Shown here in pieces: positions 1,296 to 51,528 of a stretch of DNA of 64,000 nt. Origin of the DNA: an uncultured Gemmatimonadales bacterium. Lineage in GTDB: Bacteria > Gemmatimonadota > Gemmatimonadetes > Palauibacterales > Palauibacteraceae. Below the pieces are notes generated by a model. The model saw nothing but the letters and a program-made list of their open reading frames with translations, was not told where the DNA came from and searched no databases. Position 1 is the first letter of the stretch, and each line of letters starts with the position of its first letter. The translations under genes and the position numbers were made by a program. The DNA lies in assembly GCA_963783385.1 (NCBI GenBank), contig CAWANJ010000006.1, forward strand, positions 128,001 through 192,000, in the 5' to 3' direction.

Positions 1296-3481
1296 CTCAG
1301 ACCGAGGCGGCCCAAGAGCTTTTCGAACCCCGGCTCCGACCGTAGCGGGTCGAAGAAGGGATCGGTGGCCACGAAGGCCAGGCTAGGCCCGGCTGTCGCC
1401 ATCTCGCTCCCGCTGCCCAGGACGTTGCGGAAATGCGACTCGAGGACGGTCAGCGCCCGGTCGGGCATCCCCAGCAGCGCGTACAGCGAGCCGACCCCGT
1501 ACCAGTGGACGGCACCGGGCGCGAGCGCCACGATCCGGTCCAGCACGGCGGAGGCGGCGGCGGGCTCCTCGAGCTCGTCGAGCAGAGTCCGCCAGGGGGG
1601 GCCGAACATTCGGATGGGAGCCCACTCCCTTCGCGCGGCGGCGAGATCCCCCTCCAGGTAATGGATTCCGCCGAGTATATACGAGGCGGGGTCGAACTCG
1701 ACCGCGAGCTGGCTCACGAGGCGGAGCTGGCGAGCGGCGAGGTCCCGGTCGCCACCCTGCCATGCCTGGAAGCCGACGTGGAAGTTCGTGGAGACGGAGA
1801 GCGGGTCGAGAGCGTGGGCACGCCGCATCGTCTCGAAGGCCTCCTCGGTCCGCCCCGTAACACACTGCACGTAGGCGAGAAACACACACGCGCGGGTGTC
1901 ACTCACTGTGAGATCGAGGGCACGCCGCAGGTGATCCTCGGCCCCCTCCATGTCCCGTCCGAGAAGGAAGGCGATCATCCCAGCCGCGGAGTGCGCTTCG
2001 GCGCATGCGGGATCGAGCGAGATGGCTCGCTCGGCGGCGGACTCCGCCTTCGCTAGCCACACGGCCGCGGGGGCGGCCGTGTAGCTGGGGATCAGCGCGT
2101 ACGTCGCGGCCAGGCCCGCATAGGCCCGGGCGTAGCCCGGCTCGAGCTCGATGGCCTGCTGGAAGAGTCCGACGGCTTCCTCGAGAGCGCCCTCGACGCT
2201 GTCCTCCCACCGCCTCATTCCGCGCACGTAGAGCTCGCTGGCGTCGGGATCCCGGGGATCCGGCCTCGTCAGGGCTCTCCGTTCGGGAGGGCGAAGACGG
2301 AGATCGAGGATGTCGACCACCCGTTCGGCCAGGCGGGTCTGCAATTGGAAGACCTCGCCGAGCGTCGCCTCGTAGCTGTCCGCCCACAGGTGCGTGGCGT
2401 CCGACGCCCGAATGAGCTGCGAGCTGACCCGGACTCTCCGCTCCTTCGCAGAATCATCCCAGCGGACCGCTCCCTCCAGAACGTAGTCCACGCCCAGCTC
2501 CCGCCGGACCTGTGCGATGCTCAGCGTCGCTCCGCGGTACCGGTTCGCGCTGGTGCGGGCGATCACGGCGAGACCCGATAGCTGCGCCAGCCGGCTGGTG
2601 ACCTCCTCGGTGATCCCCTCGGTGAAGCGCTCATCCTCCGGGTCGCCCAGGTGCTCGAACGGGAGGACCACGAGCCGGGGCGCCGACCTGTCGATCGCTA
2701 CCGGTGGCGGGAAGACGGCTTCGGAGCTCACGCCTTCGACATCTTGCGGCGGCATCTCGATCCGCGCCATCAGGCCCGTCACCTCCGGCGCCGGCATCAT
2801 CCCCTCGGACTGCAGCCGTCGCTCGTACCGCTCGTACTGGCGGAGGGCTCCCCGCCGGTCACCCTCCTCGAGCAGGAGCTCGATCAGGAACCGGTGCACG
2901 TGGGGGGCGAAGGGCTCGCTCTCCGCCCACCGTCGGGCCGCGGCGATCGCCCCGGCCCGGTCGCCGCGGTCCCGGTGACGCTCCGCGGCCTCGCGGCACG
3001 CCCCGCGATGGAGATCCGCCAGATGGTCGCGCCACCCATCGACCCAGCGCTCGAAGGGCACCGTGTCCCTCAGATAGGTCCCCGCGAGGAAGGGGCCGCG
3101 GTAGAGGCGGAACGCGTCTTCGAGTGCGCCGCGCTCCACGGCCTGTTCGAACGCCACCGCGTCGGCGTCGATCCAATCGGATGCCGAGAGGCGCTCGCCT
3201 GCGCGCTCCACCCACCCCGGCCCCAACGTCCCCTTCAGCTCGTAGAGCACCTGGCTCAGGGAGTGTCGCGCCCGGCGCCCGTCGCGCTCGGGCCAGAGGA
3301 GACCGATGAGCTGGTCCCTCGTCGCGGTGCGCTCGACGGCCAGGAAGACGAGCAGGGCGGCGGAAAGGTCCGAGAGGACGAGGTGCGCCTCTCCAGCTCC
3401 ATCCTTCGTGACGGCGAAGCCTCCGAGAGTGCGAACCCTGATGGTCACAGGACTTCGCGAAGGAAGGTCGACCGAAGCCAT
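1292..3481 (-). CDS. SARP/BTAD transcriptional activator with TolB-like and TPR domains
   Basis: VRTLGGF...TRDQLIGLLWPE...ARHSLSQVLYEL (wHTH), LYRGPFL (BTAD), LVVLPFEHLG...FTEGITEEV (TolB-like), TPR repeats. Confidence 0.9.
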   Translation of the reverse strand: MASVDLPSRSPVTIRVRTLGGFAVTKDGAGEAHLVLSDLSAALLVFLAVERTATRDQLIGLLWPERDGRRARHSLSQVLYELKGTLGPGWVERAGERLSASDWIDADAVAFEQAVERGALEDAFRLYRGPFLAGTYLRDTVPFERWVDGWRDHLADLHRGACREAAERHRDRGDRAGAIAAARRWAESEPFAPHVHRFLIELLLEEGDRRGALRQYERYERRLQSEGMMPAPEVTGLMARIEMPPQDVEGVSSEAVFPPPVAIDRSAPRLVVLPFEHLGDPEDERFTEGITEEVTSRLAQLSGLAVIARTSANRYRGATLSIAQVRRELGVDYVLEGAVRWDDSAKERRVRVSSQLIRASDATHLWADSYEATLGEVFQLQTRLAERVVDILDLRLRPPERRALTRPDPRDPDASELYVRGMRRWEDSVEGALEEAVGLFQQAIELEPGYARAYAGLAATYALIPSYTAAPAAVWLAKAESAAERAISLDPACAEAHSAAGMIAFLLGRDMEGAEDHLRRALDLTVSDTRACVFLAYVQCVTGRTEEAFETMRRAHALDPLSVSTNFHVGFQAWQGGDRDLAARQLRLVSQLAVEFDPASYILGGIHYLEGDLAAARREWAPIRMFGPPWRTLLDELEEPAAASAVLDRIVALAPGAVHWYGVGSLYALLGMPDRALTVLESHFRNVLGSGSEMATAGPSLAFVATDPFFDPLRSEPGFEKLLGRLGLS

Positions 3482-4201: not shown

Positions 4202-4296
4202 GGGTGCGCACGTTCAGCCCGTGCCCGAAACGAAAAGGAGTGAAGGACCGCGTCGCCGCAATCCCTTCACCCCCGATCGGTCCGTCCCATGTCGAG

Positions 4297-4369
4297 TTGG
4301 CCCGCCTGGGTTCGAACCAGGAATCTCTTGGTCCAGAGCCAAGCGTGTTGCCAGTTACACCACGGGCCA
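4297..4369 (-). tRNA. tRNA-Gln(CTG)
   Basis: TGGCCCG acceptor stem, anticodon arm CTTGG-CT-CTG-GA-CCAAG, GGTTCGAACC. Confidence 0.95.
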
Positions 4370-4448
4370 ATGCGGCGTCCGGACGTCGCCGGTCCGGACC
4401 GCGGCGGGCCCCGGAGAGGAGCCCCGCTCCCCCGAAGAGGGGTCGCCG

Positions 4449-4477
4449 ACAATAGCCTATCCCCCGGGGGGGAGCAA
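4449..4477 (-). promoter_or_regulatory. Putative sigma70 promoter for the tRNA cluster
   Basis: TTGCTC-N17-TATTGT on minus strand about 80 bp upstream of tRNA-Gln. Confidence 0.45.
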
Positions 4478-4503
4478 GTTCCGGCCGCCCCCACCGCGAG
4501 CCC

Positions 4504-4794
4504 TCAGGGGATGGGCTCGCGAACCTCCCGGAGCAACGCGAGATCCCCTTCGCGCTCCTCGGACGCGGCCTCCAGTTCGGCCTGGATACCGACCACCCGG
4601 TCATCGCCGAGCGCCGCCTCCTGGCCGGCCGGGAAACGCGTCACTTCCACGAAGCGCCCCGATCTTCCCTCGGCCTCGAGGAGCTCCGAGTCGATGCCCA
4701 TGGCGAACAGCGTCCCGCTCCACTCCGACCACGCCGCCAGGTAGCGCTCCCGCGCTTCCTCCGCGACGATCGCGCGCACCACGTGCCACCTCAC
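4504..4794 (-). CDS. Small hypothetical protein, possibly dimeric alpha/beta-barrel
   Basis: GTG start overlaps the stop of the upstream GntR gene (GTGA); MRWHVVRAIVAEEARERYLAAW. Confidence 0.6.
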   Translation of the reverse strand: MRWHVVRAIVAEEARERYLAAWSEWSGTLFAMGIDSELLEAEGRSGRFVEVTRFPAGQEAALGDDRVVGIQAELEAASEEREGDLALLREVREPIP

Positions 4795-5933
4795 GCTCGT
4801 CCTGACCTCCTCCGTCGACTTCCGCGGGACCTGCCCCCGGCGAGACCGCCCGGACCCACCCCGATCGGACCGACCGCGAGCCTGCGCGCCAGATCCGCGC
4901 ACAGCGCCGGATCCACGGTCCGGACGCCCAGCAGCCGCGTCGCTTCGATCCGACCTTCGAGCGCCGGACGACAGGCCACGTCGGCGAGCACGAACCGCGC
5001 CAGACGCAGCCCCCGGTCGAGCCTGGGCGAGGCGCCGGGCGCCAGGGCCAGGGCGGCGACCTCCCGTCCCCGGAGGCCGGCGGCCAGATCCCGGAAGCGT
5101 CTACGGAGGGTGGGACTCACCGACACGAGCACGGCCACGGCCCCGACGGCCAGGCGAAGGAGTAGACGGCGCTCCCGGGCCCCTCCGGGAGCCCGGAGCG
5201 CGACAACCTCGACCCAGGGCGGCAGCGCGGCACGCATCGCCGGGGCCTGGCGCGGGGAGGCCGCGATCAGGGCCCCGGAGGCTCGTTCAGGCTGCCGTCG
5301 GAGGGCGTCGGGGTCCGAGGCCGTGACCCGGATGCCGGAGAGGGCCCACTCGAGCTCGCGGCGACGAAGCTCCCGCAGCTCCGGCTCCTCGTCGACCACG
5401 ATGACCCGCCGGGCGGAGAGGGCCGCCCGCCAGCGCTCGAACAGCCCTGCCAGCTCCGCGGTTCCGGAGCCACGAGCCCGCTCGCGGGCCACGAAGGCAC
5501 GGAACGGATCCGGATCCCGGCCGGGGCCGACTCCCGGAGCGACGGCCGCGTCGCCCTCGCCCGTATCGGGCGCGGTCACGTAGGCACCGCTCCCCGGCTT
5601 CAGCTCCACCAGGCCCTCCCGGGCCAGGCGGCGGTAGGCCGACAGCACGGTGCCGCGGTCGATCCCGAGCCGCTCGGCGAGGACCCGGCCGCCGGGGAGC
5701 CGCGCCCCGGCCGTGCAGCGGCCCTCGCGCAGGGCGGCGGCCAGCTGCGCGGCCAACTGGCGGTGGAGCGGCACGGACTCGCCGGGCCGGAGCCGCAGGG
5801 AAAGCCACGGCAGGGGCCCGGTGGGATGGCTTGCGTCCGCCGCCGTACCGCCGCCGGAGCCGACACTCCCGCAAGGGCCTGGATCGCAGAACCCGCGTCG
5901 CTTCGACGTTTTCGAGCCTCGCCTCCGCTCCAT
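4791..5933 (-). CDS. GntR-family transcriptional regulator
   Basis: VPLHRQLAAQL...GARLPGGRVLAERLGIDRGTVLSAYRRLAREGLVELKPGSGAYV wHTH; GGAGG RBS. Confidence 0.85.
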   Translation of the reverse strand: MERRRGSKTSKRRGFCDPGPCGSVGSGGGTAADASHPTGPLPWLSLRLRPGESVPLHRQLAAQLAAALREGRCTAGARLPGGRVLAERLGIDRGTVLSAYRRLAREGLVELKPGSGAYVTAPDTGEGDAAVAPGVGPGRDPDPFRAFVARERARGSGTAELAGLFERWRAALSARRVIVVDEEPELRELRRRELEWALSGIRVTASDPDALRRQPERASGALIAASPRQAPAMRAALPPWVEVVALRAPGGARERRLLLRLAVGAVAVLVSVSPTLRRRFRDLAAGLRGREVAALALAPGASPRLDRGLRLARFVLADVACRPALEGRIEATRLLGVRTVDPALCADLARRLAVGPIGVGPGGLAGGRSRGSRRRRSGRA

Positions 5934-6108
5934 GTCGCCTCCGTTATTCGGTATACCTGTCGGAGATCGGGCCGGGGCCTTATGTATGGGGCCGTCCTCA
6001 ACTCCCGCTCATCCGGGGGGGCCGGACCGGGACCCCGGCGTACGGCCGCAGTGGGACGCCGGGACCCGCTGATCTCGGACATGAACACGCTGCCAAAGGT
6101 TGTTGCCA

Positions 6109-7383: not shown

Positions 7384-10350
7384 CTAGCTGCCCCCGCCGT
7401 CACTCCCGTCGTCCTCCTTCCCGAGCCCGAGGTGCAGGTCGTTCCAGTTCATGATCGCGTTCCACACCAGGGCGAAGTCGCCCTGCGGCTGGAAGCGGTG
7501 CATGGGGTCGAAGCCGAACAGGACCACCATCCCCTCGCCCTCCGGCACCACGACGACCGCCGGCCCGCCGGCCATCTTGCCGCCGCCCTTGACGAGTCCG
7601 GACAGGAAGAGCGAGTCGGCGCCGGCGTACTTCACCACGGCGTCCTCCTTCGTCCGGTCGTCCAGCCGGAAGTAGGGCCCGAAGCGGTGGTAGAGCGGCA
7701 TGCGCTCGGGGTAGCCATACGCGACCGGATTCTCGGCCCGAACCACCTTCCCGCGCACCAGGGATCCGGGCACGAACAGGCCGCTCGGCTCGACCCGCTG
7801 CACGTGGCGGACGAGCCCCATGTCCACGGGCAGGGCGCTGGAGGAGCCCAGTGTCACGAGCGTTCCTCCGCGGCGCACGAAGTCGCGGAGCGCCGCGAGC
7901 CCTTCGTACCCGATCCCACCCGTGATGTCGGCAGCGGAGTCGGGGAGGCCGAGAGCCGGATAGGTGGCCGACGAGCGATAGGACAGGGGTCCGCGGGACG
8001 GATCCAGCCCCTCGAAGATGCGCTTCCCCGTGGCTCCGGCTCCCTGCGAGGCCATGAGTATGACGTCGAAGCGGGCGCGCAGGTCGGCCGGTCGGGCACC
8101 CTCGGTGAGGTCGTCCGTCCCCAGGTAAGTGTAGGGCACGCCCATGGTGTCCAGGGCAAAGCGCACCGAGCCGTCGTCCTGGGTGTCCGTCCAGGTGTGG
8201 AGGAGCGCGACCCGCGGCGCGTCCATCGCGTGCCGGGTCACGTCCCGGACGTCCCGGTCGCGGAGTCCCGTGACCTGGAGATCGAGGCCGGCCGCCAGGC
8301 TGTCGATCACGGAGCGCGGCACGGAGTCGGCCGGCACCAGCCACGTGCCCGCCGCGAAGCTCCGGTCCCGGGCCCGAAAGCTGTCCTCGGCGGCGTAGGC
8401 CGGGATCGATCCGTCGGCACGCCGCAGGCCGAGCCAGGCCCGAACTTCCCGCCCGGAGGCGTGGGGCTCCACCGCCCACCAGTCGGCGCCGCCGGCGTGC
8501 GCCACGGAGGCGGGCAGCCGAACGCGCCCGCCGTCGACGGGCGAGGTCCGGAGCGCGAGCACGGCGCTGTCGCCGACCGCGTGCGCCTCGACGCCGTACA
8601 TGAACGGGTAGGTCCAGCCCACGTCGTCGTAGGGCGGGGGCGCGTCCTCGGGGAATTCCTGCGGCCGCATGAGCGTCAGCAGGAAGTTCCGGTAGGGCTG
8701 GTCCATGCGGAGCACGTAGTCGCCCTTCCGCACCCGCACCGAGTCCGCCTGGTCGTAGCGCTTGCCGGCCCCGGCGAAGGTCCCGTCCTGCGCCGCCCGC
8801 GATACCTCGATGCCGTGGTCCCGCAGATTCTGGAGCATGGCCGCCGCATCGGCGCGGCGGGGCTGGTCGGCGGGCACGACCCAGGCGAACGGCTTCTCGG
8901 TCCGTCCCTTCGTCAGGCTGTTGACGCCCTTCTGCCAGAAGTCGCGCAGCAGGCGCCCCCGGTGGGCGGCGGCCAGGGAGAGCGCCGAGAGGGCGCCCGA
9001 CTCCATGTAGTTGGTGTTGTTCCGGAGGGACCACAGGGTGGAGTCGTGCGGCGGGCTGGGCCGGTACCACTGCACGTGGGTCGCATCGCCCCGGAGCTCG
9101 CGCTTCATCGTGTTGGGGACGCTGTTCCCGAACGTCTCGTAGAAGCGGCCCAGGCTGTTCAGGTCCATGTTCGTGACCCACATCATGTAGCCCGGATACC
9201 AACCGGTGTAGAAGCCGTGCGTCCACACCCCGGGGAGCCCGTACGAGGTGAGGCTCGTGACCTCCCAGTTGGCCATCCACGCCCACTCGCTCACCGTGAT
9301 CGGGTCCACGGCGGGGTTGTAGGGCCCGGTCCCGGTGGCCGTGTACAGGTAGGGCACCGACTCGTGCATGTCGTGCCCGACCGTGTAGTGCCAGTGCAGG
9401 GCCAGCTTCACGATGATCCGGGTCAGGTCGGTGATCATCCCGAATCCGTCCCGGTTGTCGTCGTGCATGATGTAGTGGCCCCAGTAGGGCGGTCCCCGCA
9501 CGATGCTGTCTGCGTAGAACACATCGGCGTTGTGGAGGCGGTGCCACTCGACCACACGGTCACGACCATCGGGGTCCATCACCGGGACGATGAACACGAC
9601 CACGTTCTTGCGGATGGCCCGGGTCACCGAGTCCTCGGAGGCGGCCAGCCGGTAGGCCATCTCCATGGTCATCTCGGGGGGGCCCGTCTCGGCCGAGTGG
9701 AGCCCGGCGTAGAAGGTGTAGACCACCGGCAGGTCCCGGACGAGAGTGTCGGCCTCCGCGCGCGAGGTCGTACGCGGGTCGGCAAGCTTCCCGAGCCCCG
9801 TCCGGATGGCCTCGAGCCGCTCCAGGTTCTCGCGGCTCCCCACCTGGACCAGCGCCAGATGCCGGCCCTCCTCGGTCTTCCCCAGGAGCTGGAAGCGAAC
9901 GCGCGGCGTGCTGGCGGCCAGGTCCCTGAAGTAGCCGTAGATCTGGTCCACGCTGTGGAGCGTGCCCGGCTTCCCGATCGGGTCGCCGAAGTGCTTCGAG
10001 GGCGAGGTGGCCGACGAGACCGGGATCTGGTCCACGAGCGGCGTCATGTACTCGGCCCTCGTGGTCCACGACAGGATCTTCCGGGTGGCGACCGTGTCCA
10101 CGGCCTGTCCCCACGGCGTCGTGTCCGGCACGCCGGCGGCCCTCCACCAGTCGAACGTCTGGGGGACGGGGGGCGCCCCGGCGCGGGCGGAGTCCGCGGC
10201 CGTGTCCCGCCGCGCGGCCGCGACCGCGACCGCCGGACGGTCCGGCCGGACCACGGCGCGGGGCGTGGACGCCGACGCGGTCGGTGGCGCGGAAGCGGCG
10301 CCGAACAGAAAGACGAGCGGGAGGATCACTGCGAGCATCCGTCGGGGCAT
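7384..10350 (-). CDS. Secreted M14 zinc carboxypeptidase family protein
   Basis: Signal peptide; LHSAE (HxxE), DPDG, DDNRD, HDMHE motifs. Confidence 0.9.
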   Translation of the reverse strand: MPRRMLAVILPLVFLFGAASAPPTASASTPRAVVRPDRPAVAVAAARRDTAADSARAGAPPVPQTFDWWRAAGVPDTTPWGQAVDTVATRKILSWTTRAEYMTPLVDQIPVSSATSPSKHFGDPIGKPGTLHSVDQIYGYFRDLAASTPRVRFQLLGKTEEGRHLALVQVGSRENLERLEAIRTGLGKLADPRTTSRAEADTLVRDLPVVYTFYAGLHSAETGPPEMTMEMAYRLAASEDSVTRAIRKNVVVFIVPVMDPDGRDRVVEWHRLHNADVFYADSIVRGPPYWGHYIMHDDNRDGFGMITDLTRIIVKLALHWHYTVGHDMHESVPYLYTATGTGPYNPAVDPITVSEWAWMANWEVTSLTSYGLPGVWTHGFYTGWYPGYMMWVTNMDLNSLGRFYETFGNSVPNTMKRELRGDATHVQWYRPSPPHDSTLWSLRNNTNYMESGALSALSLAAAHRGRLLRDFWQKGVNSLTKGRTEKPFAWVVPADQPRRADAAAMLQNLRDHGIEVSRAAQDGTFAGAGKRYDQADSVRVRKGDYVLRMDQPYRNFLLTLMRPQEFPEDAPPPYDDVGWTYPFMYGVEAHAVGDSAVLALRTSPVDGGRVRLPASVAHAGGADWWAVEPHASGREVRAWLGLRRADGSIPAYAAEDSFRARDRSFAAGTWLVPADSVPRSVIDSLAAGLDLQVTGLRDRDVRDVTRHAMDAPRVALLHTWTDTQDDGSVRFALDTMGVPYTYLGTDDLTEGARPADLRARFDVILMASQGAGATGKRIFEGLDPSRGPLSYRSSATYPALGLPDSAADITGGIGYEGLAALRDFVRRGGTLVTLGSSSALPVDMGLVRHVQRVEPSGLFVPGSLVRGKVVRAENPVAYGYPERMPLYHRFGPYFRLDDRTKEDAVVKYAGADSLFLSGLVKGGGKMAGGPAVVVVPEGEGMVVLFGFDPMHRFQPQGDFALVWNAIMNWNDLHLGLGKEDDGSDGGGS

Positions 10351-44248: not shown

Positions 44249-46249
44249 ATGAATACGCTACGGAGCATCTCGGCCGCCGTCTGCCTGGCGCTCCTGGGCG
44301 CCGCGACGGCATCCGCCCAGGAGGCGGACAGCACCTTCATCCGGCAGAACTACGTCAAGCACGAGTACCGCATCCCGATGCGGGACGGCGTGAAGCTGTT
44401 CACCATCGTGTACGTGCCCAGGGACGCGTCCCCGACGCACACCTACCCGATGGTGATGGAGCGTACCTGCTATTCGATCCGACCCTACGGCCCGGACGCC
44501 TACCCGAGCCGGCTGGGACCCGACCGGTTCATGATGCGGGACAAGTACATCTTCGTGTACCAGGACGTGCGCGGGCGCTACATGTCCGAGGGCACCTTCG
44601 TGAACGTGCGCCCCTTCGTCCCCGACTCCATCAAGGCGAAGAACCCGAAGGCCGTCGACGAGGCGTCGGACACCTACGACACCATCGCCTGGCTGCTGAA
44701 GAACGTACCCTACAACAACGGGCTCGTGGGACAGTGGGGGATCAGCTACCCCGGCTTCTACACGACCATGGGGGCGCTGTCGGGGCATCCGGCCCTGGTC
44801 GCCGCCTCGCCGCAGGCGCCGGTCACGAACTTCTACTTCGAGGACTTCCACCACAACGGCGCCCTGACGCAGGGCTACTTCTACACCTACCCGGTGTTCG
44901 GCGTCCAGCACCCCCACCCGACCACCGAGAACTGGTGGATGCCCGAGATGCAGCACGTGCTGGGCACCGAGGGGCAGCAGGGTCGAGGGTTCTTCGGAGG
45001 GGCCCGGAAGATCCAGGGGCTGCCCGACGACTACGACTACCAGCTCAGCCTCGGGCCGCTCCGCAACACGACCGAGAAGTTCTACAAGAACAACTTCTTC
45101 TGGGAGGAGATCGTCCACCATCCCGACTACGACGCCTTCTGGAAGGCGCGCGCCGTCGGCCCGGACATCGTCGAGCACATGAAGACCGGCGCGCCCATGC
45201 CGGCCATGATGGAGGTGGGAGGCTGGTTCGACGCCGAGGACCTGTACGGTCCGCTCCAGGTCCACCGCATGGTCCAGTCGCAGGACCCCCAGCGCTTCAA
45301 CGGACTCGTGTACGGGCCGTTCCGCCACGGCGGCTGGTCCGCGCAGGGCGTCGTTCACACCGTGCACGGCGACATCTACTTCGGCGACTCGCTCGAGACG
45401 AAGTTCCAGCGCGACGTCGAGGCGAAGTTCTTCCACCACTTCCTGAAGGACGGCGGCAAGGGACCGGTGGGGCTGGCCCAGGCCCACATGTTCGACACCG
45501 GCAAGAAGGTGTGGGACAACTTCGAGACCTGGCCCCCCGCGGCCGCCACCAAGCGCTCGCTCTACCTGGACCCGCACGGCTCCCTGTCCTTCGAGCCGCC
45601 CCGGGGCGGCCCGGCCTACTCGGAGTACGTGAGCGATCCCGAGGAGCCCGAGGCGAGCCGCTGCCGGCCGCCGACGATCCAGGGCCTCACCATGTACCAG
45701 TACATGAGCGACGACCAGCGCTGCTTCGACAACGACCGCGGCGTGGTTACCTTCGAGACGCCGCCGCTGGACCACGACGTGACCCTGGCCGGGCCCATCG
45801 AGGTGCACCTGTTCGCGAGCACGTCGACGGACGCCTCGGACTACGTCGTGAAGCTCATCGACGTCTACCCGATGGACGAGCCCGACAGCCCGTACCGGCC
45901 CGACAAGGAAGTGCACTACGCCGGCTACCAGCAGCTGGTGCGCGGCGAGATCATGCGCGGGCGCTACCGGGACGGGTTCGACGACCCGAAGCCGTTCGTG
46001 CCGGGGAAGGTCACGAAGGTCGACTTCCGGCTCCAGGACGTGCTGCAGACGTTCAAGAAGGGGCACCGGATCATGGTGCAGGTGCAGAGCACCTGGTTCC
46101 CGGCCTTCGACCGGAACCCGCAGCACTACGTGCCCAACATCTACGACGCCACGCAGGGCGACTTCGTGAAGGCCACCGAGCGCATCTACCACACGCCCGA
46201 GCAGCCCAGCCGGCTGGACGTGGAGGTGCTGCCGGGCGGGTCTCCGTAG
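44249..46249 (+). CDS. CocE/NonD (S15) hydrolase, alpha-amino acid ester hydrolase/glutaryl-7-ACA acylase-like
   Basis: IPMRDGVKL, QDVRGRYMSEG, WGISYPG, GGWFDAED, QVQSTWFP. Confidence 0.92.
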   Translation: MNTLRSISAAVCLALLGAATASAQEADSTFIRQNYVKHEYRIPMRDGVKLFTIVYVPRDASPTHTYPMVMERTCYSIRPYGPDAYPSRLGPDRFMMRDKYIFVYQDVRGRYMSEGTFVNVRPFVPDSIKAKNPKAVDEASDTYDTIAWLLKNVPYNNGLVGQWGISYPGFYTTMGALSGHPALVAASPQAPVTNFYFEDFHHNGALTQGYFYTYPVFGVQHPHPTTENWWMPEMQHVLGTEGQQGRGFFGGARKIQGLPDDYDYQLSLGPLRNTTEKFYKNNFFWEEIVHHPDYDAFWKARAVGPDIVEHMKTGAPMPAMMEVGGWFDAEDLYGPLQVHRMVQSQDPQRFNGLVYGPFRHGGWSAQGVVHTVHGDIYFGDSLETKFQRDVEAKFFHHFLKDGGKGPVGLAQAHMFDTGKKVWDNFETWPPAAATKRSLYLDPHGSLSFEPPRGGPAYSEYVSDPEEPEASRCRPPTIQGLTMYQYMSDDQRCFDNDRGVVTFETPPLDHDVTLAGPIEVHLFASTSTDASDYVVKLIDVYPMDEPDSPYRPDKEVHYAGYQQLVRGEIMRGRYRDGFDDPKPFVPGKVTKVDFRLQDVLQTFKKGHRIMVQVQSTWFPAFDRNPQHYVPNIYDATQGDFVKATERIYHTPEQPSRLDVEVLPGGSP

Positions 46250-46280
46250 TGGAGCGGACGGGGGCGCGACGGCCGGAGGC

Positions 46281-47177
46281 GTGATCCGGACGGCCCCGTC
46301 CGAGACCGCGCCGCTCGGCACGGTCCTGGTCAAGCGACCCGAGGAAGCGTTCGGGAGCGCGGAGCGGATCGAGGCGGAGTGGCGCGACCTGGGCTACGCG
46401 TCGCCGCCCGACTACGAGGCCGCGTGCGCCGAGCACGCGGCCTTCGTCGAGCTGCTCCAGGCCATGGGCGCGCAGCCCACCTACCTGCCGTCCGCCCCGG
46501 ACACCGGGCTCGACTCCCTGTACGCCCGCGACGCGTCCATCGTGGGGCCGCGGGGCGCCATCCTGTGCCGCATGGGCAAGGAGGCGCGGCGCGCCGAGCC
46601 GGAGGCGGAGGCTCGTGCATACTGGATGATGGGCGTCCCCGTCCTCGGCGGGATCGAGGCTCCGGGGACCGTGGAGGGCGGCGATTTCGTGTGGCTCGAC
46701 GAGCGTACCGCGGCCGTGGGACGCGGCTACCGCACCAACGCCGAGGGTATCCGCCAGCTACGCGAGCTCCTGGCCGACGACGTGGACCGCCTGCTCGTCG
46801 TGCCGCTCCCCCACTGGCGAGGACCCGGCGATGTCTTCCACCTCATGTCCATCCTGAGCCCGGTGGACCGCGATCTGGCCGTGGTCTACTCGCCCCTCCT
46901 ACCCGTGCCCTTCCGGGAGGCGCTCCTGGAGCGCGGGGTCGAGCTGGTGGAGGTCCCGGACGAGGAGTTCGACGCGCTCGGCTGCAACGTGCTGGCCGTG
47001 GCTCCGCGCCGGTGCGTCATGGTGGAGGGGTGTCCGGTCACGCGCCGCCGGTTGGAGGCGGCGGGCGCCGAGGTGCGCACGTTCGCCGGCCGCGAGATCT
47101 GCCTCGAGGGGCAGGGAGGACCGACCTGCCTCACGCGGCCTGTGGTACGGAGGACCGAGGGCGGACCGACGGGTTGA
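46281..47177 (+). CDS. Amidinotransferase/dimethylarginase (DDAH/ADI-like) family protein
   Basis: DSLYARD, VEGGD, GYRTN, FHLMS, GGPTCLT. Confidence 0.88.
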   Translation: MIRTAPSETAPLGTVLVKRPEEAFGSAERIEAEWRDLGYASPPDYEAACAEHAAFVELLQAMGAQPTYLPSAPDTGLDSLYARDASIVGPRGAILCRMGKEARRAEPEAEARAYWMMGVPVLGGIEAPGTVEGGDFVWLDERTAAVGRGYRTNAEGIRQLRELLADDVDRLLVVPLPHWRGPGDVFHLMSILSPVDRDLAVVYSPLLPVPFREALLERGVELVEVPDEEFDALGCNVLAVAPRRCVMVEGCPVTRRRLEAAGAEVRTFAGREICLEGQGGPTCLTRPVVRRTEGGPTG

Positions 47178-47523
47178 GCCCGGCGCCTCGATCCATTCGG
47201 CGACCGCCTCGCGGCTCCGGGGCCCACGCCGGAGCCGCGACCAGACGCTCAACCGACGACGGCGCAGGATTCGGGGTGAATCCACCGGAATGATTCGATC
47301 AGCCATCCGACGTTCGTAGTCGGTAGATCTTGGGCAGACTTCCTATTGTGACCGCCCGAGTTGTTGATACTACGTTGACGAAGCTATTTAGAATTGCTAC
47401 AGAGGTCTCTGGCCGGCCATGGACCAAGTCTTGTCAGAACTCACTCTGGGCGAGCGACAGGAGAAGCCTACCGAAAGTCCCCACAGGCCCAACATTCCTG
47501 CTACCTCGGAGGCCGTAATCGGA

Positions 47524-47772
47524 TTGCCCGCTCGCAAGTACTCGATTGTGACCGCCGCTTCCCTCCTTGTTGCAGTTCTCCCGATCTCCCTTAGACACGT
47601 GTCGGCCAGCCCCTCAGGCGATAGGGGTGTTCGATCTTGGCATGTCACATGGAGTAGAGCGTGTGCTGAGGGAACGTGTGTCTTCAAATTCTTCTGGGAC
47701 TGCGTGACCCCCAACAACCCATTCCCGCAACCGAATTCATGCGACTATCGAGATCCAGGCTGTTTGCCATAG
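47524..47772 (+). CDS. Secreted Cys-rich peptide 1 (82 aa)
   Basis: TTG start after GGAGG; MPARKYSIVTAASLLVAVLPI...WHVTWSRACAEGTCVFKFFWDCVTPNNPFPQPNSCDYRDPGCLP; paralog of next ORF. Confidence 0.75.
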   Translation: MPARKYSIVTAASLLVAVLPISLRHVSASPSGDRGVRSWHVTWSRACAEGTCVFKFFWDCVTPNNPFPQPNSCDYRDPGCLP

Positions 47773-48007
47773 GGGCGCAAAACCTCTATGAAGTGCCGGC
47801 ACCCAGATCATGGTGGCAGGTCTCAAGTCGGTTCAAGAGCTACCCCGCTTGTAGTCCGACACGCTCCGCAGGTCGAGGATGTTCCTACGGCGTCCGTTCG
47901 GTCACCCAGCGAGAACCAGTGCGCCGACATGCAGGAAGGCACTGTGCGGTGCGAGGCAACGCTCGATACGCGTGACCGAGTATATTCCCCAATACAAGGA
48001 GGATAGC

Positions 48008-48265
48008 ATGCGCACCAAGAGGCTCCAGATGGTCGCAGCCGTTTCCGCCAGCATGCTGGCCCTCGCCCTGCCCATCCACTTTGGACACGCTGCGTCAGCG
48101 CCGGGCGTGGTCGCAGAGATGACAACCTGGCACATTTCCTGGAGCGAGGCGTGCGCGCAGGGGAGCTGCGCACCCAAGGACAATTGGGACTGCTGGTGAC
48201 CCGGCGCACCCCTTCCCGACCCGAACCACTGCGACCCTTGGGATCCTGGTTGTCTGGATCAGTAG
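48008..48265 (+). CDS. Secreted Cys-rich peptide 2 (85 codons, in-frame TGA at 48197-48199)
   Basis: AAGGAGG RBS; MRTKRLQMVAAVSASMLALALPI...WHISWSEACAQGSCAPKDNWDCW*PGAPLPDPNHCDPWDPGCLDQ-TAG. Confidence 0.75.
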
Positions 48266-48291
48266 CGGATCAAGCTCTGCCCATCGCTCGC

Positions 48292-49578
48292 ATGCCGGCC
48301 GGGATGCATAGTCCATCGCGTGCCGGCGCTGGGCAGGCTGTCCTCACAGCGCTTCTGTTACTTCTGGCCAGCTGTCACGCCGACTCCCGCGAGGCGGTCC
48401 GCTCTCCCGTCACGGACACGAACAACCAGGGAGACTCACCAGCGGCGAGCGCCGAGAGTCCTCCCCAACCGGCCGCTGCGGCATGGCATGTCGACCCGGC
48501 GTCTCGTCTGCGAATTGGACGAGCAGCAGGAGACCCCGAGTATCTGTTCGAACGAGTCAATGGCGTCCAGGTCCTGGAGAATGGGAGAATCGCCATAGCC
48601 GACGCCGGCTCCGAGTCGGTCCGCTTGTTTGACGCTTCCGGGCATTGGGTCGCCACTGCCGGTGGGTTTGGTGGGGGGCCGGGCGAGTATCGCGGACTGA
48701 AGTGGATCGGCGAATGCAGTCCTGACACCCTCTATGCGTACGATGCTGTCAACTGGAGGATTACAGAAATCGACGCCGACGGAGGCGTTGACCACATGTT
48801 CACGCCGGCGCTCCCATCCTCCGATATCCCGCCGCTGCGCGTTGCGTGTGCTCCCGATGGTAATGTGATCCTGATGGGTTGGGGTGGCCTTCGACCGGAC
48901 CACGCGATGATGGCCTGGCGTCCAGACGTTCCGATCGCCGTCGTTGACCAGGACGGCCGGCTCGTCAGGGACATTGGAACCGTCCGTGGCAACGAGCGAT
49001 ACGCCTTCGCTCGCAGCGTTGGTCCCATGCCCCTCGGAAAGTCGACGTTGATCGCGGGAGGTGCAAGCCACGTCTACGTTGGAACAGGTGACAGCTATGA
49101 GATTCGGCAGTACGGTCGTAGGGGCCAGTTCATCAGAACGGTCAGGCTCGGCCGTCGACCTGTTGCCATTACGGACCGCGACATCAATGCGTTCACGGAC
49201 AGTGTACTAGCTCTCACACAGAGCAGCGCCAAGCGAAACATCTGGCGCAAGCAGCTCGAGGAGGTCCGGTTTCCAGCCACTCTCCCGGCCTACGAGTCCC
49301 TGCTGGTCGGGGGAAAGGGCTGCCTGTGGGTCGAGGATTATGCTAGACCGGGAACAGCTTCCGACCGTACATGGTCTGTCTTCGCCCCATCAGGTCGGCT
49401 TGTTGCGACGAGTGCTACTCCACATGGCTTGCAGGTGCTGGATATCGGCCCATCAACCATCGCCGGTGTCACGGCTGATTCTCTAGGAATCCAGCATGTC
49501 GAGGTGCACTCACTGCTTCGTGACTCCCCGCAGGGAGCCGAGGCCTGTGGTGAGACTCAAGCAAGAGGGCCAGCCTGA
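48292..49578 (+). CDS. Lipoprotein, 6-bladed beta-propeller-like
   Basis: Lipobox LASC; IAIADAG...VRLFDASG...GGFGGGPGEYR; LWVEDY; WSVFAPSGRL. Confidence 0.8.
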   Translation: MPAGMHSPSRAGAGQAVLTALLLLLASCHADSREAVRSPVTDTNNQGDSPAASAESPPQPAAAAWHVDPASRLRIGRAAGDPEYLFERVNGVQVLENGRIAIADAGSESVRLFDASGHWVATAGGFGGGPGEYRGLKWIGECSPDTLYAYDAVNWRITEIDADGGVDHMFTPALPSSDIPPLRVACAPDGNVILMGWGGLRPDHAMMAWRPDVPIAVVDQDGRLVRDIGTVRGNERYAFARSVGPMPLGKSTLIAGGASHVYVGTGDSYEIRQYGRRGQFIRTVRLGRRPVAITDRDINAFTDSVLALTQSSAKRNIWRKQLEEVRFPATLPAYESLLVGGKGCLWVEDYARPGTASDRTWSVFAPSGRLVATSATPHGLQVLDIGPSTIAGVTADSLGIQHVEVHSLLRDSPQGAEACGETQARGPA

Positions 49579-49635
49579 GGCGAGCGCGCCGGCGGCCGCC
49601 TCGGGGTCGAGCCCCGGGACGGCCCGCTCTCGCGC

Positions 49636-51217
49636 TCAGCCGCCCACGTTGTCCGTGGACTCGATGAACTTCGCCACGTTGTCGTGCAGCTCCTTCAGCG
49701 CCGGAACGTGCGCGTACACCATGTGGCCGGACTGATAGAAGTCGTAGGAGATGTTGTCCTGCAGCCGGCGCTCCATGGGCAGGTGCTTCATCGTGTAGAC
49801 GGCCGCGTAGAAGGGCGTCGCCAGGTCGAAGTAGCCCGAGTTGAGCAGCACCTTCAGCTTCGGGTTCGTCTTCATGGCCTGCGCCAGGTCGAGCATGACG
49901 TTGGTCGCGCCGATGCTGCCGAAGCGCGTCCCGGGCGCCCGGTGCTTGAAGCTCCATCCCTTGGCATACAGGCCGATCTCCGGCCGGTACGACTTGCCCT
50001 TCCCGAAGTCCAGCGTCTTGCGCACGTAGTCGTTGAACAGCGACACGTACGCCGAGCTGATCGCGGAGGCCTGGGGATCGTAGGACGCCTCCTGGCTGAG
50101 GGGATCGATCGTCGGGCCGGCGAAGCGGGTGTCGAGCCGGCCGACGGTCTCCTCGTCCTGGGCGAGCAGGTTCTTGGTGAACTCGCCGCCGTTCACGCGA
50201 AGGTCCGCCTTCATCAGGTAGTCCACCGGAAGGCCGATGTACTGGTGCATCTTCTCGGCGACCGAGCGCAGCGTGGCCGAGTCGAGGGCCGCCCCCTGGT
50301 CGAGCGCCTGCTGGTACGGGCCCATGGCGAAGCTCTCGACCTCCTTCAGGAAGGGCTCGAGCTCGGCCGGCCGGTCGGCAGCGCGTGGTGGTACCAGGCC
50401 GTGGCCGCGTAGGTGGGCAGGGCGAGCTCGTAGGTGAGGTCCATGCCCGGGTTCATCTGCGGACCATCGACGTCCGAGAGGTCGTAGCTCAGGATCTCGG
50501 AGAGGAGGACGACGCCGTTCAGGTCGACGTCCTTGCCGTTCTCGAGGTCGTTGGAGAGCACGGCCGAGCGCGTGGTGCCGTAGCTCTCGCCGAACAGGTA
50601 CTTGGGCGAGTTCCAGCGCCCGTACTCCGACAGGAAGCGGGTGATGAAGTCCGCGAACGCGTGCGCGTCGGCGATCCACGCCGTAGAAGTCCTTGTCGGT
50701 GCCGATCGCCGCCCTGGTCCTTGCCGATGATGCGGCTGAAGCCGGTGCCCATGGCGTCCACGAACACCAGGTCGCTGGCGTCGAGGAGGCTGTAGTCGTT
50801 GTTCACCAGCTTGTAGGGCGCGGCGGCGGTGTGGCTGTGGTCGGCCGTGGTCACCCGGCGCGGCCCGAAGGCGCCCATGTGGAGCCACACGGTCGAGGAG
50901 CCCGGACCGCCGTTGTACAGGAAGGTGACGGGCCGGCTGGCGGGGTCAGCGCCCTGCTTGAAGTAGGCGACGTAGAACATGCTGCCGGTCGGCTTGTCCT
51001 CGTCGTTCTTGAGGATGATGGTCCCGGCGACGGCCCTGTACGAGATCTGCTTGCCCTCGACCGTGACGGTGCCGTGAGTGACGGACTGCTCGGGCTGGAC
51101 CGCCGACTTCCTGGCCGGCGCGCCCGAGTCCGACGGACTCGACTGCGCCACGGAGATGGCGGGCGTGAAGAACGCGCAGGCCGCGAACAGCGCCGCCAGG
51201 GTCGCGAAGCGCCTCAT
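49636..51217 (-). CDS. Secreted S10 serine carboxypeptidase (frameshifted)
   Basis: FLYNGGPGSS, GTGFSR, GESYGTTR, GYFDLATP, SGHMVY. Confidence 0.92.
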
Positions 51218-51528
51218 GGTGACTTCTCCTGTGCTCGATGGAATCGATCGATCGGAACGGCGTCCCCGGTGATGGGGCGGGAGCGTGGCGCGGCACGCCC
51301 GGGGAGCCGGAGGAGGTCCGGCTCTCGGATCGCGTCTGTGGTCGGGACTCGTCGCTGCGACACGCTCATGGTCGGGCGCCACGATAGGACGGGCCTCCAT
51401 CCGGCTGCAACAGGCACCGCCTCCTCCTTGCCCGTGCCCGGCGGGGCACGCGAGGTTGACCGCCGCGTGACCTCCGACGTCGGGGGTGCGCCCGTGACCC
51501 TCGAACCGAAGCCGTACGGAGTGCCCCG

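Follow-up and report, generated by a model that had tools for sequence, protein, structure and literature searches.

What does a short cassette of three genes, low in guanine plus cytosine (GC), do in the genome of an uncultured Gemmatimonadales bacterium, and do its genes form one unit? The cassette lies on a 64,000-nucleotide stretch of contig CAWANJ010000006.1 (positions 128,001 to 192,000, forward strand), here named the window, whose own numbering is used throughout. It contains a gene for a small cysteine-rich peptide (P1), a broken duplicate of this gene (P2) and a gene for a six-bladed beta-propeller lipoprotein. The reading that we favour, tentatively and with slightly less than even confidence, is that the cassette is an orphan, horizontally moved extracytoplasmic module whose propeller most likely binds P1.

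P1 (47524..47772, plus strand) is an intact gene for an 82-aa precursor. The precursor has a basic N-terminus (MPARK), a hydrophobic stretch and the residues VSA, after which the 54 residues of the predicted mature part begin with S; the signal reads MPARKYSIVTAASLLVAVLPISLRHVSA. A start of the open reading frame (ORF) at ATG 47419 is unlikely. This codon is AGG in a 98.5%-identical metagenome contig (L079) and TTG 47524 aligns with the ATG of P2, so the TTG, with GGAGG upstream at 47508-47512, is most likely the start. The first-pass annotation of this DNA, which was made from the sequence alone, proposed cleavage after a conserved ACA motif and release of a core of about 35 aa with four Cys. 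Cleavage at this site is unlikely, because the Cys of ACA is invariant in 23 of 23 aligned family members and the hydrophobic part of the P1 signal ends 18 residues earlier, at VSA before S, as in the -3/-1 rule. Given cleavage at this predicted site, the mature peptide has five Cys instead of four, spaced C-x4-C-x7-C-x12-C-x6-C. The mature part bears the mark of purifying selection, with two synonymous and no non-synonymous changes relative to L079, and the start, Shine-Dalgarno (SD) sequence and frame of P1 are kept in both haplotypes. An AlphaFold2 model of mature P1 from a 19-row alignment reached a predicted local distance difference test (pLDDT) score of 56.9, too low for a fold or a disulfide map. 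The best look-alikes in the ESM Atlas scored 0.81-0.82, all of them unnamed clusters and below the useful range, and in a PDB sequence search with the peptide profile the best expectation value (E), 0.4, belonged to a yeast protein in its zinc-cluster region, a match that was taken as chance.

The peptide family had not been recognised at first sight, and neither P1 nor P2 matched any Pfam entry (E<=1, including NVEALA, PF14055) or NCBIfam entry. Every absence from genomes reported here holds for those searched, and the genome samples are partial. A profile made from P1 and P2 only (A1) found two true relatives, in genomes G261 and G241, within a 401-genome sample of the phylum, a tally that takes in the unpublished genome G097. 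Within the taxonomic family, a four-sequence profile detected it in 22 of 114 genomes, including a weak match in G438; it was nearly confined to one sister genus (g2), being present in 20 of its 36 genomes and in none of the three other genomes of the window's own genus. The weak G438 match and another in G473 lack the Cys pattern and were judged false. A 23-row profile (A3) run on the phylum sample matched 14 of the 29 genomes of family f1 and gave one marginal match (E 2.2e-4) in the 371 genomes of other families. P1 and P2 score E 6.9e-17 and 3.6e-16 with A3, values that are partly circular since the profile includes both sequences; the independent check is the detection of G261 and G241 with A1. 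Searched against 5.8 billion proteins, the peptide profile returned 19 sequences, with no Pfam domain and named only 'hypothetical protein'.

The g2 peptides are 59-72 aa long, each with an SD sequence and a signal peptide, and share the core LSTASC-x4-C-G-x7-C-x-C-PD-x10-C, which contains five invariant Cys. In P1 the fourth of these is Thr and an extra C-terminal Cys has been added, so that the count is kept and the positions are not. Its sequence marks P1 as intact and as a divergent representative of a predicted secreted five-Cys mini-protein family that lacks annotation. One g2 copy (L059, G242:C3:179540-179739) has its signal part in a different frame from its core and thus carries a frameshift, indicating that decaying peptide copies are also found in the sister genus.

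The first-pass annotation treated the peptides and the propeller as one module, and this pairing proved to be a conserved unit and not a chance adjacency. When three propeller proteins were compared by tblastn with 26 real peptide loci outside the window (two rows without a locus were left out), a propeller match was found in the 1.5-kb flank at all 26. At 24 of them the start of the propeller does not lie beyond the stop of the peptide gene; the match at L051 is partial and that at L062 lies at the locus edge. The closest cassette is that of G261, with a propeller 38% identical to the one in the window and with the gene order propeller then peptide, as opposed to peptide then propeller in the window. 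At four g2 loci the genes run in the order extracytoplasmic function (ECF) sigma factor, anti-sigma factor of about 700 aa with a zf-HC2 domain, peptide, and TolB-like propeller of PF15869 (E 1e-15 to 1e-18). The anti-sigma factor is a membrane protein that combines zf-HC2, TPR and an AhpC/TSA-like (thioredoxin-like) end. Because the propeller belongs to PF15869 in g2 and is DUF5128-like in the window, the peptide travels with two six-bladed propeller families; these are alike only locally, the alignment of the window propeller with the TolB-like one of g2 being confined to the GxGPGEF region (hhalign probability 42%). In one g2 operon (L071, G100:C3) a signal peptidase I gene (8241-9086; Peptidase_S26, E 3.9e-46) directly follows the propeller.

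The G261 cassette (L075, G261:C35, about 4257-5940) is located between two segments that match positions 2-52 and 52-234 of the IS21 IstB profile, with istA beyond. Parts of the IstB frame lie on both sides, and the cassette therefore interrupts istB; an intact copy of this IS21 that could set the insertion borders was not found in G261. The GC content of this cassette is 0.635 against 0.67-0.72 in its flanks, and no terminal repeats common to it and the window insert were found beyond coding similarity. Neither the window nor the 8.4-kb contig of G261 contains an ECF sigma/anti-sigma pair upstream of the cassette.

The third gene (48292..49578, plus strand) encodes the 428-aa propeller lipoprotein. 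It starts 26 bp after P2, as first described, and carries an L-A-S-C lipobox; the lipobox (LLLASC, within ...LLLLLASC28) conforms to [LVI][ASTVI][GAS]C, and 65 of 69 relatives retain its Cys28, so that lipidation is predicted. The repeats that had been called beta-propeller-like do form a propeller in the AlphaFold2 model (69 rows), with a pLDDT of 89.7 and a predicted template modelling (TM) score of 0.88. Foldseek placed NHL domains first (E 5e-14, TM score by target 0.6-0.7), followed at lower ranks by Bacteroides exported proteins, PAL (3fvz, E 3.2e-09) and BtuG-type lipoproteins; B. fragilis BF0058 (4raa) matched the model with E 3.6e-10. DUF5128 (PF17170) gives 16.3 bits (E 0.006) on the window propeller, under the gathering cut-off of 22.9, and matches 61 of the 69 aligned relatives at E<=0.01 (best 2e-08). 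Taken on sequence, the protein is best described as a distant branch of the DUF5128/NHL six-bladed group.

The group is very large. Cluster representatives numbered 10,406 (E<=1e-30) in a HMMER search with a 9-row profile, compared with only 9 relatives from a word-based search, and the window-type propeller profile matched 219 of the 401 phylum genomes, often in tandem arrays (a tally that takes in the unpublished genome G057; no individual claim depends on G057 or G097). A propeller search of assembled genome contigs found one weak relative, in a Longimicrobiales metagenome-assembled genome, and a search of viral contigs found no relatives of the propeller or the peptides. Cys142, Cys186 and Cys344 are common to the window and G261 propellers; Cys344 is present in two of the 69 aligned members, both of them peptide-linked, and in three of 30 members of a second set. 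In seven of 28 loci (L089, L090, L092, L093, L094, L096 and L100) the window-type propeller stands beside AcrB-type resistance-nodulation-division transporter genes; in three of these seven it lies between two transporter genes, and elsewhere tandem arrays of two to three paralogs were observed. Another locus (L115, G272:C97) has a different small ORF, encoding a secreted Cys-rich product of 66 aa with six Cys (2972-3172, minus strand; ...ITCWVCVCSGSNCKCEQVTCP...), and a window-type propeller follows it 269 nt downstream on that strand; the two may represent a second, unrelated peptide/propeller pairing.

The cassette occupies a low-GC insert of about 2.35-2.4 kb (47245..49589, no strand assigned), as delimited by the GC profile, an empty site in genome G448, a terminal repeat and the comparison with L079. 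The GC counts first reported, 26/60 at 47341-47400 and 44/60 at 47101-47160, were exact on recount. The 300-nt GC profile, at about 0.75 before, sinks to 0.55 at 47250-47549 and then ranges over 0.55-0.66 through 49649. At third codon positions the GC fraction is 0.59 in P1 and 0.65 in the propeller, against 0.92 in the gene on the left flank. The low-GC cassette is a real 2.4-kb indel, as G448, a genome of the same genus about 81% identical to the window, has the empty site: there about 85 bp separate the convergent flanking genes, and the sites equivalent to 47143 and 49631 of the window adjoin, the window's match to the empty site stopping near 47143. The other two genomes of the genus are uninformative at this site: in one the contig ends where the match does, and in the other the flanks are not adjacent. 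The left edge (47215..47240, plus strand) corresponds to the terminator-like section of the spacer that originally separated the two convergent genes, with a perfect 12-bp hairpin at 47209-47240 just 3' of an ADI/DDAH-like gene whose stop is at 47177. A 17-nt imperfect direct repeat (88%) is present at both ends of the insert, at 47198-47214 and 49590-49606.

The cassette is mobile and was recently exchanged between lineages. Window and L079 differ at 36 of 2,328 positions of the insert (1.5%; 98.5% identical), against 269 of 2,475 and 233 of 1,715 positions in the two flanks (10.9% and 13.6%; 89.1% and 86.4% identical). With flanks 11-14% diverged and an insert only 1.5% diverged, the exchange took place after the lineages had split. 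These comparisons were made on assembled contigs, which do not reveal rare variants.

No modifying enzyme, transporter or integrase is adjacent to the cassette, in agreement with the first-pass annotation; the neighbours are an S15 peptidase, the ADI/DDAH-like gene, an S10 carboxypeptidase and a beta-lactamase-family protein. The insert and flanks also contain no maturase of the type that acts on ribosomally synthesised and post-translationally modified peptides and no dedicated exporter, and the peptides bear ordinary Sec-type signals. A sigma-70 promoter scan found 0 promoter-like sites. Upstream of P1 and P2 the ECF-type pattern GGAAC-N-CGT matched once, loosely, ahead of P1; it was absent upstream of five g2 sigma genes and is therefore uninformative. 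Only chance-level Rfam matches (E of 2 or more) were obtained in 47000-49800. Immediately to the right of the insert, the S10 carboxypeptidase appears to be spread over three overlapping frames of the minus strand within 49636-51400 (51400-50519, 50888-50346 with a GESYG motif, and 50679-49636), suggesting frameshifts or a pseudogene. A second indel is found in the neighbourhood: in G448 (C103:30458-32286) the S15 peptidase and the ADI/DDAH-like gene are set apart by about 1.8 kb of extra DNA, which is absent from the window (compared at 46234-46283).

P2 (48008..48265, plus strand) is preceded by an AAGGAGG SD sequence (47996..48002, plus strand), read from the sequence, 5 nt before its ATG. 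P1 and P2 had been reported as two small ORFs that align without gaps over their last 44 positions with 25 identities, and had been taken as two functional paralogs. The alignment holds, and a search with P1 across the whole genome finds P2 with E 1.4e-19, a similarity far beyond chance. P2 is not open, however: an in-frame TGA (48197..48199, plus strand) interrupts it at position 24 of the 44-residue alignment, and translation with table 11 gives a 63-aa product ending in ...NWDCW. The locus is most likely a pseudogene, or else encodes this truncated product. The TGA is not an assembly error, as two metagenome contigs (L077 and L078) are identical to the window; a contig of run X5 is also identical to it. 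In the sister haplotype, represented by L079, the P2 start is changed from ATG to ATA, Q51 from CAG to TAG and the TGA to TGG, and an inserted CC causes a +2 frameshift; an independent contig of run X12 has the ATA, TGG and CC changes and no TAG. From these lesions, set against the TGA alone in the window, P2 is dead in one haplotype and stopped by a single nonsense codon in the other, so that the claim of two functional paralogs falls. P2 is very probably a pseudogene, a copy of P1 in decay.

At the TGA column 20 of the 22 other family rows, which are all the g2 rows, have Cys; P1 has Thr there and G261 has Gln. The subfamily formed by P1 and G261 lacks a Cys at this column, and a new C-terminal Cys holds its total at five. 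The genome possesses selenocysteine machinery above cut-offs (selA 535 bits, selB 253 bits, selD 363 bits and selenocysteine tRNA 76 bits). Its SelD is a bona fide selenoprotein: selD (G000:C9:735480-736403, minus strand, L014) has its own in-frame TGA (GAG-U-ACKLGP) followed by a strong hairpin of -24.1 kcal/mol over 51 nt, which served as the positive control in this organism for a selenocysteine insertion sequence (SECIS). No SECIS-like hairpin was found after the P2 TGA, either by Rfam or by folding (z -0.25). The 51 nt from this codon reach -10.5 kcal/mol, a stability equalled or exceeded in 88% of 800 background TGA windows. Close orthologs have neither a conserved UGA nor a Cys in its place, with TGG in L079 and X12, Thr in P1 and Gln in G261; Cys was found only in the distant g2 peptides. 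The selB match itself comes in two abutting pieces (G000:C9:419445-420104 and 420103-421299; L005 and L010; profile positions 2-218 and 218-575), which may reflect a frame change or merely two high-scoring segment pairs.

In the reading of the cassette as an orphan peptide and propeller module, P1 would be exported through its N-terminal signal and cleaved after VSA28; it would then fold, stabilised by disulfides, to a length of about 54 aa and dock on the co-expressed propeller lipoprotein. Docking may involve the fifth, unpaired Cys of P1 and Cys344 at the start of a propeller inner strand. In g2 the pair sits behind the ECF sigma factor and the membrane anti-sigma factor of about 700 aa with its thioredoxin-like end, and since it appears to be transcribed behind them it is probably part of an envelope-signalling circuit. 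The window copy would have lost, or never had, this sigma wiring, and for this reason may act alone or through unlinked partners. A bolder version appears rather improbable to us, namely a mobile ligand/receptor cassette in which the fifth Cys of the mini-protein is tethered by a disulfide to Cys344, where the propeller channel opens, forming a portable extracytoplasmic sensing or recognition module, the same one that g2 would use in its ECF circuits. Prediction of a complex between mature P1 and the propeller gave scores of 0.01 and 0.02 against a mark of 0.32, with the peptide's own fold uncertain, a result that bears on binding in neither direction.

Several observations weigh against the module reading. 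The peptide is always found with a propeller, while the window-type propeller family is usually found without this peptide: among the 30 best window-type loci only those of the window and G261 carry it, and in so huge a family the propeller clearly has no general need of it. An intermolecular disulfide was rejected as a general feature of the module, as the g2 propellers have no conserved mature Cys. The window's own genome showed no homolog of the g2 anti-sigma factor beyond a 24.5-bit zinc-finger match, and P2, the second of the peptide genes, is already in decay. Between window and L079 the propeller carries seven non-synonymous and two synonymous changes, small numbers that give no sign of strong constraint; its ORF is intact in all four versions seen.

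Some of the same features could be explained if the cassette were a competition locus, with P1 as a Sec-exported, disulfide-rich antimicrobial (a sec-dependent bacteriocin-like toxin) and the propeller lipoprotein as its immunity or self-protection protein. A small, self-contained cassette without a dedicated regulator, variable in presence between strains (absent in G448) and recently exchanged between lineages, would fit such a locus, as would the gene duplication and pseudogene turnover, the G261 copy within an IS21 element and the high share of non-synonymous changes in the propeller (seven of nine). Against this, the same pair is found inside g2 ECF sigma/anti-sigma operons, which suggests sensing rather than warfare, and to our knowledge a 400-aa propeller is not an established type of immunity protein. 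Pfam and NCBIfam were blank for the peptides, although no search aimed at PADLOC-type or bacteriocin families was made. On balance, we consider toxin and immunity functions unlikely, at about one chance in five.

A second alternative takes the propeller as an enzyme of the lyase, cyclase or lactonase type that matures or cleaves the peptide. The presence of the peptide-acting six-bladed PAL among the structural neighbours, SGL/lactonase-type Pfam matches in seven of 69 propeller family members, and the tight gene coupling, with 26 bp between genes in the window and a propeller that abuts the peptide stop in g2, are consistent with this idea. The best structural matches, in contrast, are non-enzymatic NHL binding domains, and most members of the propeller family have no adjoining peptide of this kind, and we regard an enzyme and its substrate as improbable.

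The cassette could also be a decaying passenger, the non-functional remnant of a larger mobile element in which the adjacency of the genes has no function here. The broken P2, the missing sigma/anti-sigma partners, the excess of replacement changes in the propeller and the empty sigma-70 scan would be expected of such a remnant. The mature part of P1, however, shows synonymous changes only, with start, SD and frame kept in both haplotypes, and the propeller ORF remains open in the four versions of a cassette that has recently spread between lineages; this explanation also appears doubtful, to much the same degree. Least tenable, and very improbable in our judgement, is the proposal that the TGA of P2 encodes selenocysteine at a conserved Cys position in a secreted mini-protein: the complete machinery, the Cys in all g2 rows and the intact frame, SD and downstream conserved residues in the window and two identical metagenome contigs would allow it, but the fold after the TGA is far weaker than the hairpin of selD (-10.5 vs -24.1 kcal/mol), the nearest relatives have Thr or Gln at this column and a Cys at the sixth position instead, and the sister haplotype combines TGG, which a single transition turns into TGA, with loss of the start codon and a +2 frameshift, L079 carrying a TAG as well.

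Comparison with known systems helps to place the orphan peptide and propeller module. The nearest counterparts are the sister-genus ECF operons, which share with the window a homologous peptide (hidden Markov model E of about 1e-16) with a signal and five Cys, three of them at the same spacing, and an adjoining six-bladed propeller. The window differs in having no sigma or anti-sigma factor, a DUF5128-like instead of a PF15869 propeller, a peptide in which the fourth Cys, that of C-x-C, is replaced and a C-terminal Cys is added, a duplicated peptide gene and a location on a low-GC indel. In Bacteroidota, NVEALA (PF14055) small proteins adjoin DUF5128/TolB_like six-bladed propeller lipoproteins, a layout that resembles the window in that a gene for a small exported protein adjoins one for a six-bladed propeller lipoprotein, in both cases from one structural group. 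The window peptides, unlike these, are Cys-rich, do not match PF14055 at E<=1 and belong to a different phylum. A literature search found no paper on NVEALA and, among the matches listed, no mention of DUF5128, PF17170 or PF15869.

Small exported Cys-rich subunits bound to a beta-propeller are known from MauA/MauB methylamine dehydrogenase and from the gamma and beta subunits of quinohemoprotein amine dehydrogenase. The cassette differs from both in having no MauG or radical-SAM maturase nearby and six propeller blades rather than seven; the g2 peptides lack any Trp from which a quinone cofactor could be made, and no PDB chain matched (best E 0.4). In RpoE-RseA-RseB envelope-stress modules a periplasmic accessory protein works with an ECF sigma factor and a membrane anti-sigma factor. 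The sister-genus operons are similar in that one or more accessory proteins are co-transcribed with such a pair, whereas the window cassette has no sigma or anti-sigma factor; nor are the accessory proteins relatives of RseB or RseC. P2 recalls bacterial selenocysteine/Cys protein pairs in its in-frame TGA on a Cys column and in the complete machinery of its genome, and differs from them in having no SECIS, a TGG for the TGA in the sister haplotype and a gene otherwise decaying there.

The locus is among the clearest cases of a tiny secreted Cys protein strictly co-inherited with a beta-propeller, with two propeller families and two gene orders, and none of its peptide or propeller components had been annotated. 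The in-frame TGA of P2 is also a caution, in that such a codon on a Cys column, in a genome that uses selenocysteine, is still read as a nonsense mutation. The window copy indicates that the module can exist and move without the regulators, be exchanged between lineages, and have its peptide genes duplicate and decay. If the peptide and the propeller do bind, this would provide a function for a small part of a very large family of propeller lipoproteins (>10,000 sequence clusters), and would suggest what the thioredoxin-like anti-sigma factors of Gemmatimonadota sense. A portable sensing or recognition module of this kind, if true, would be a previously undescribed class.

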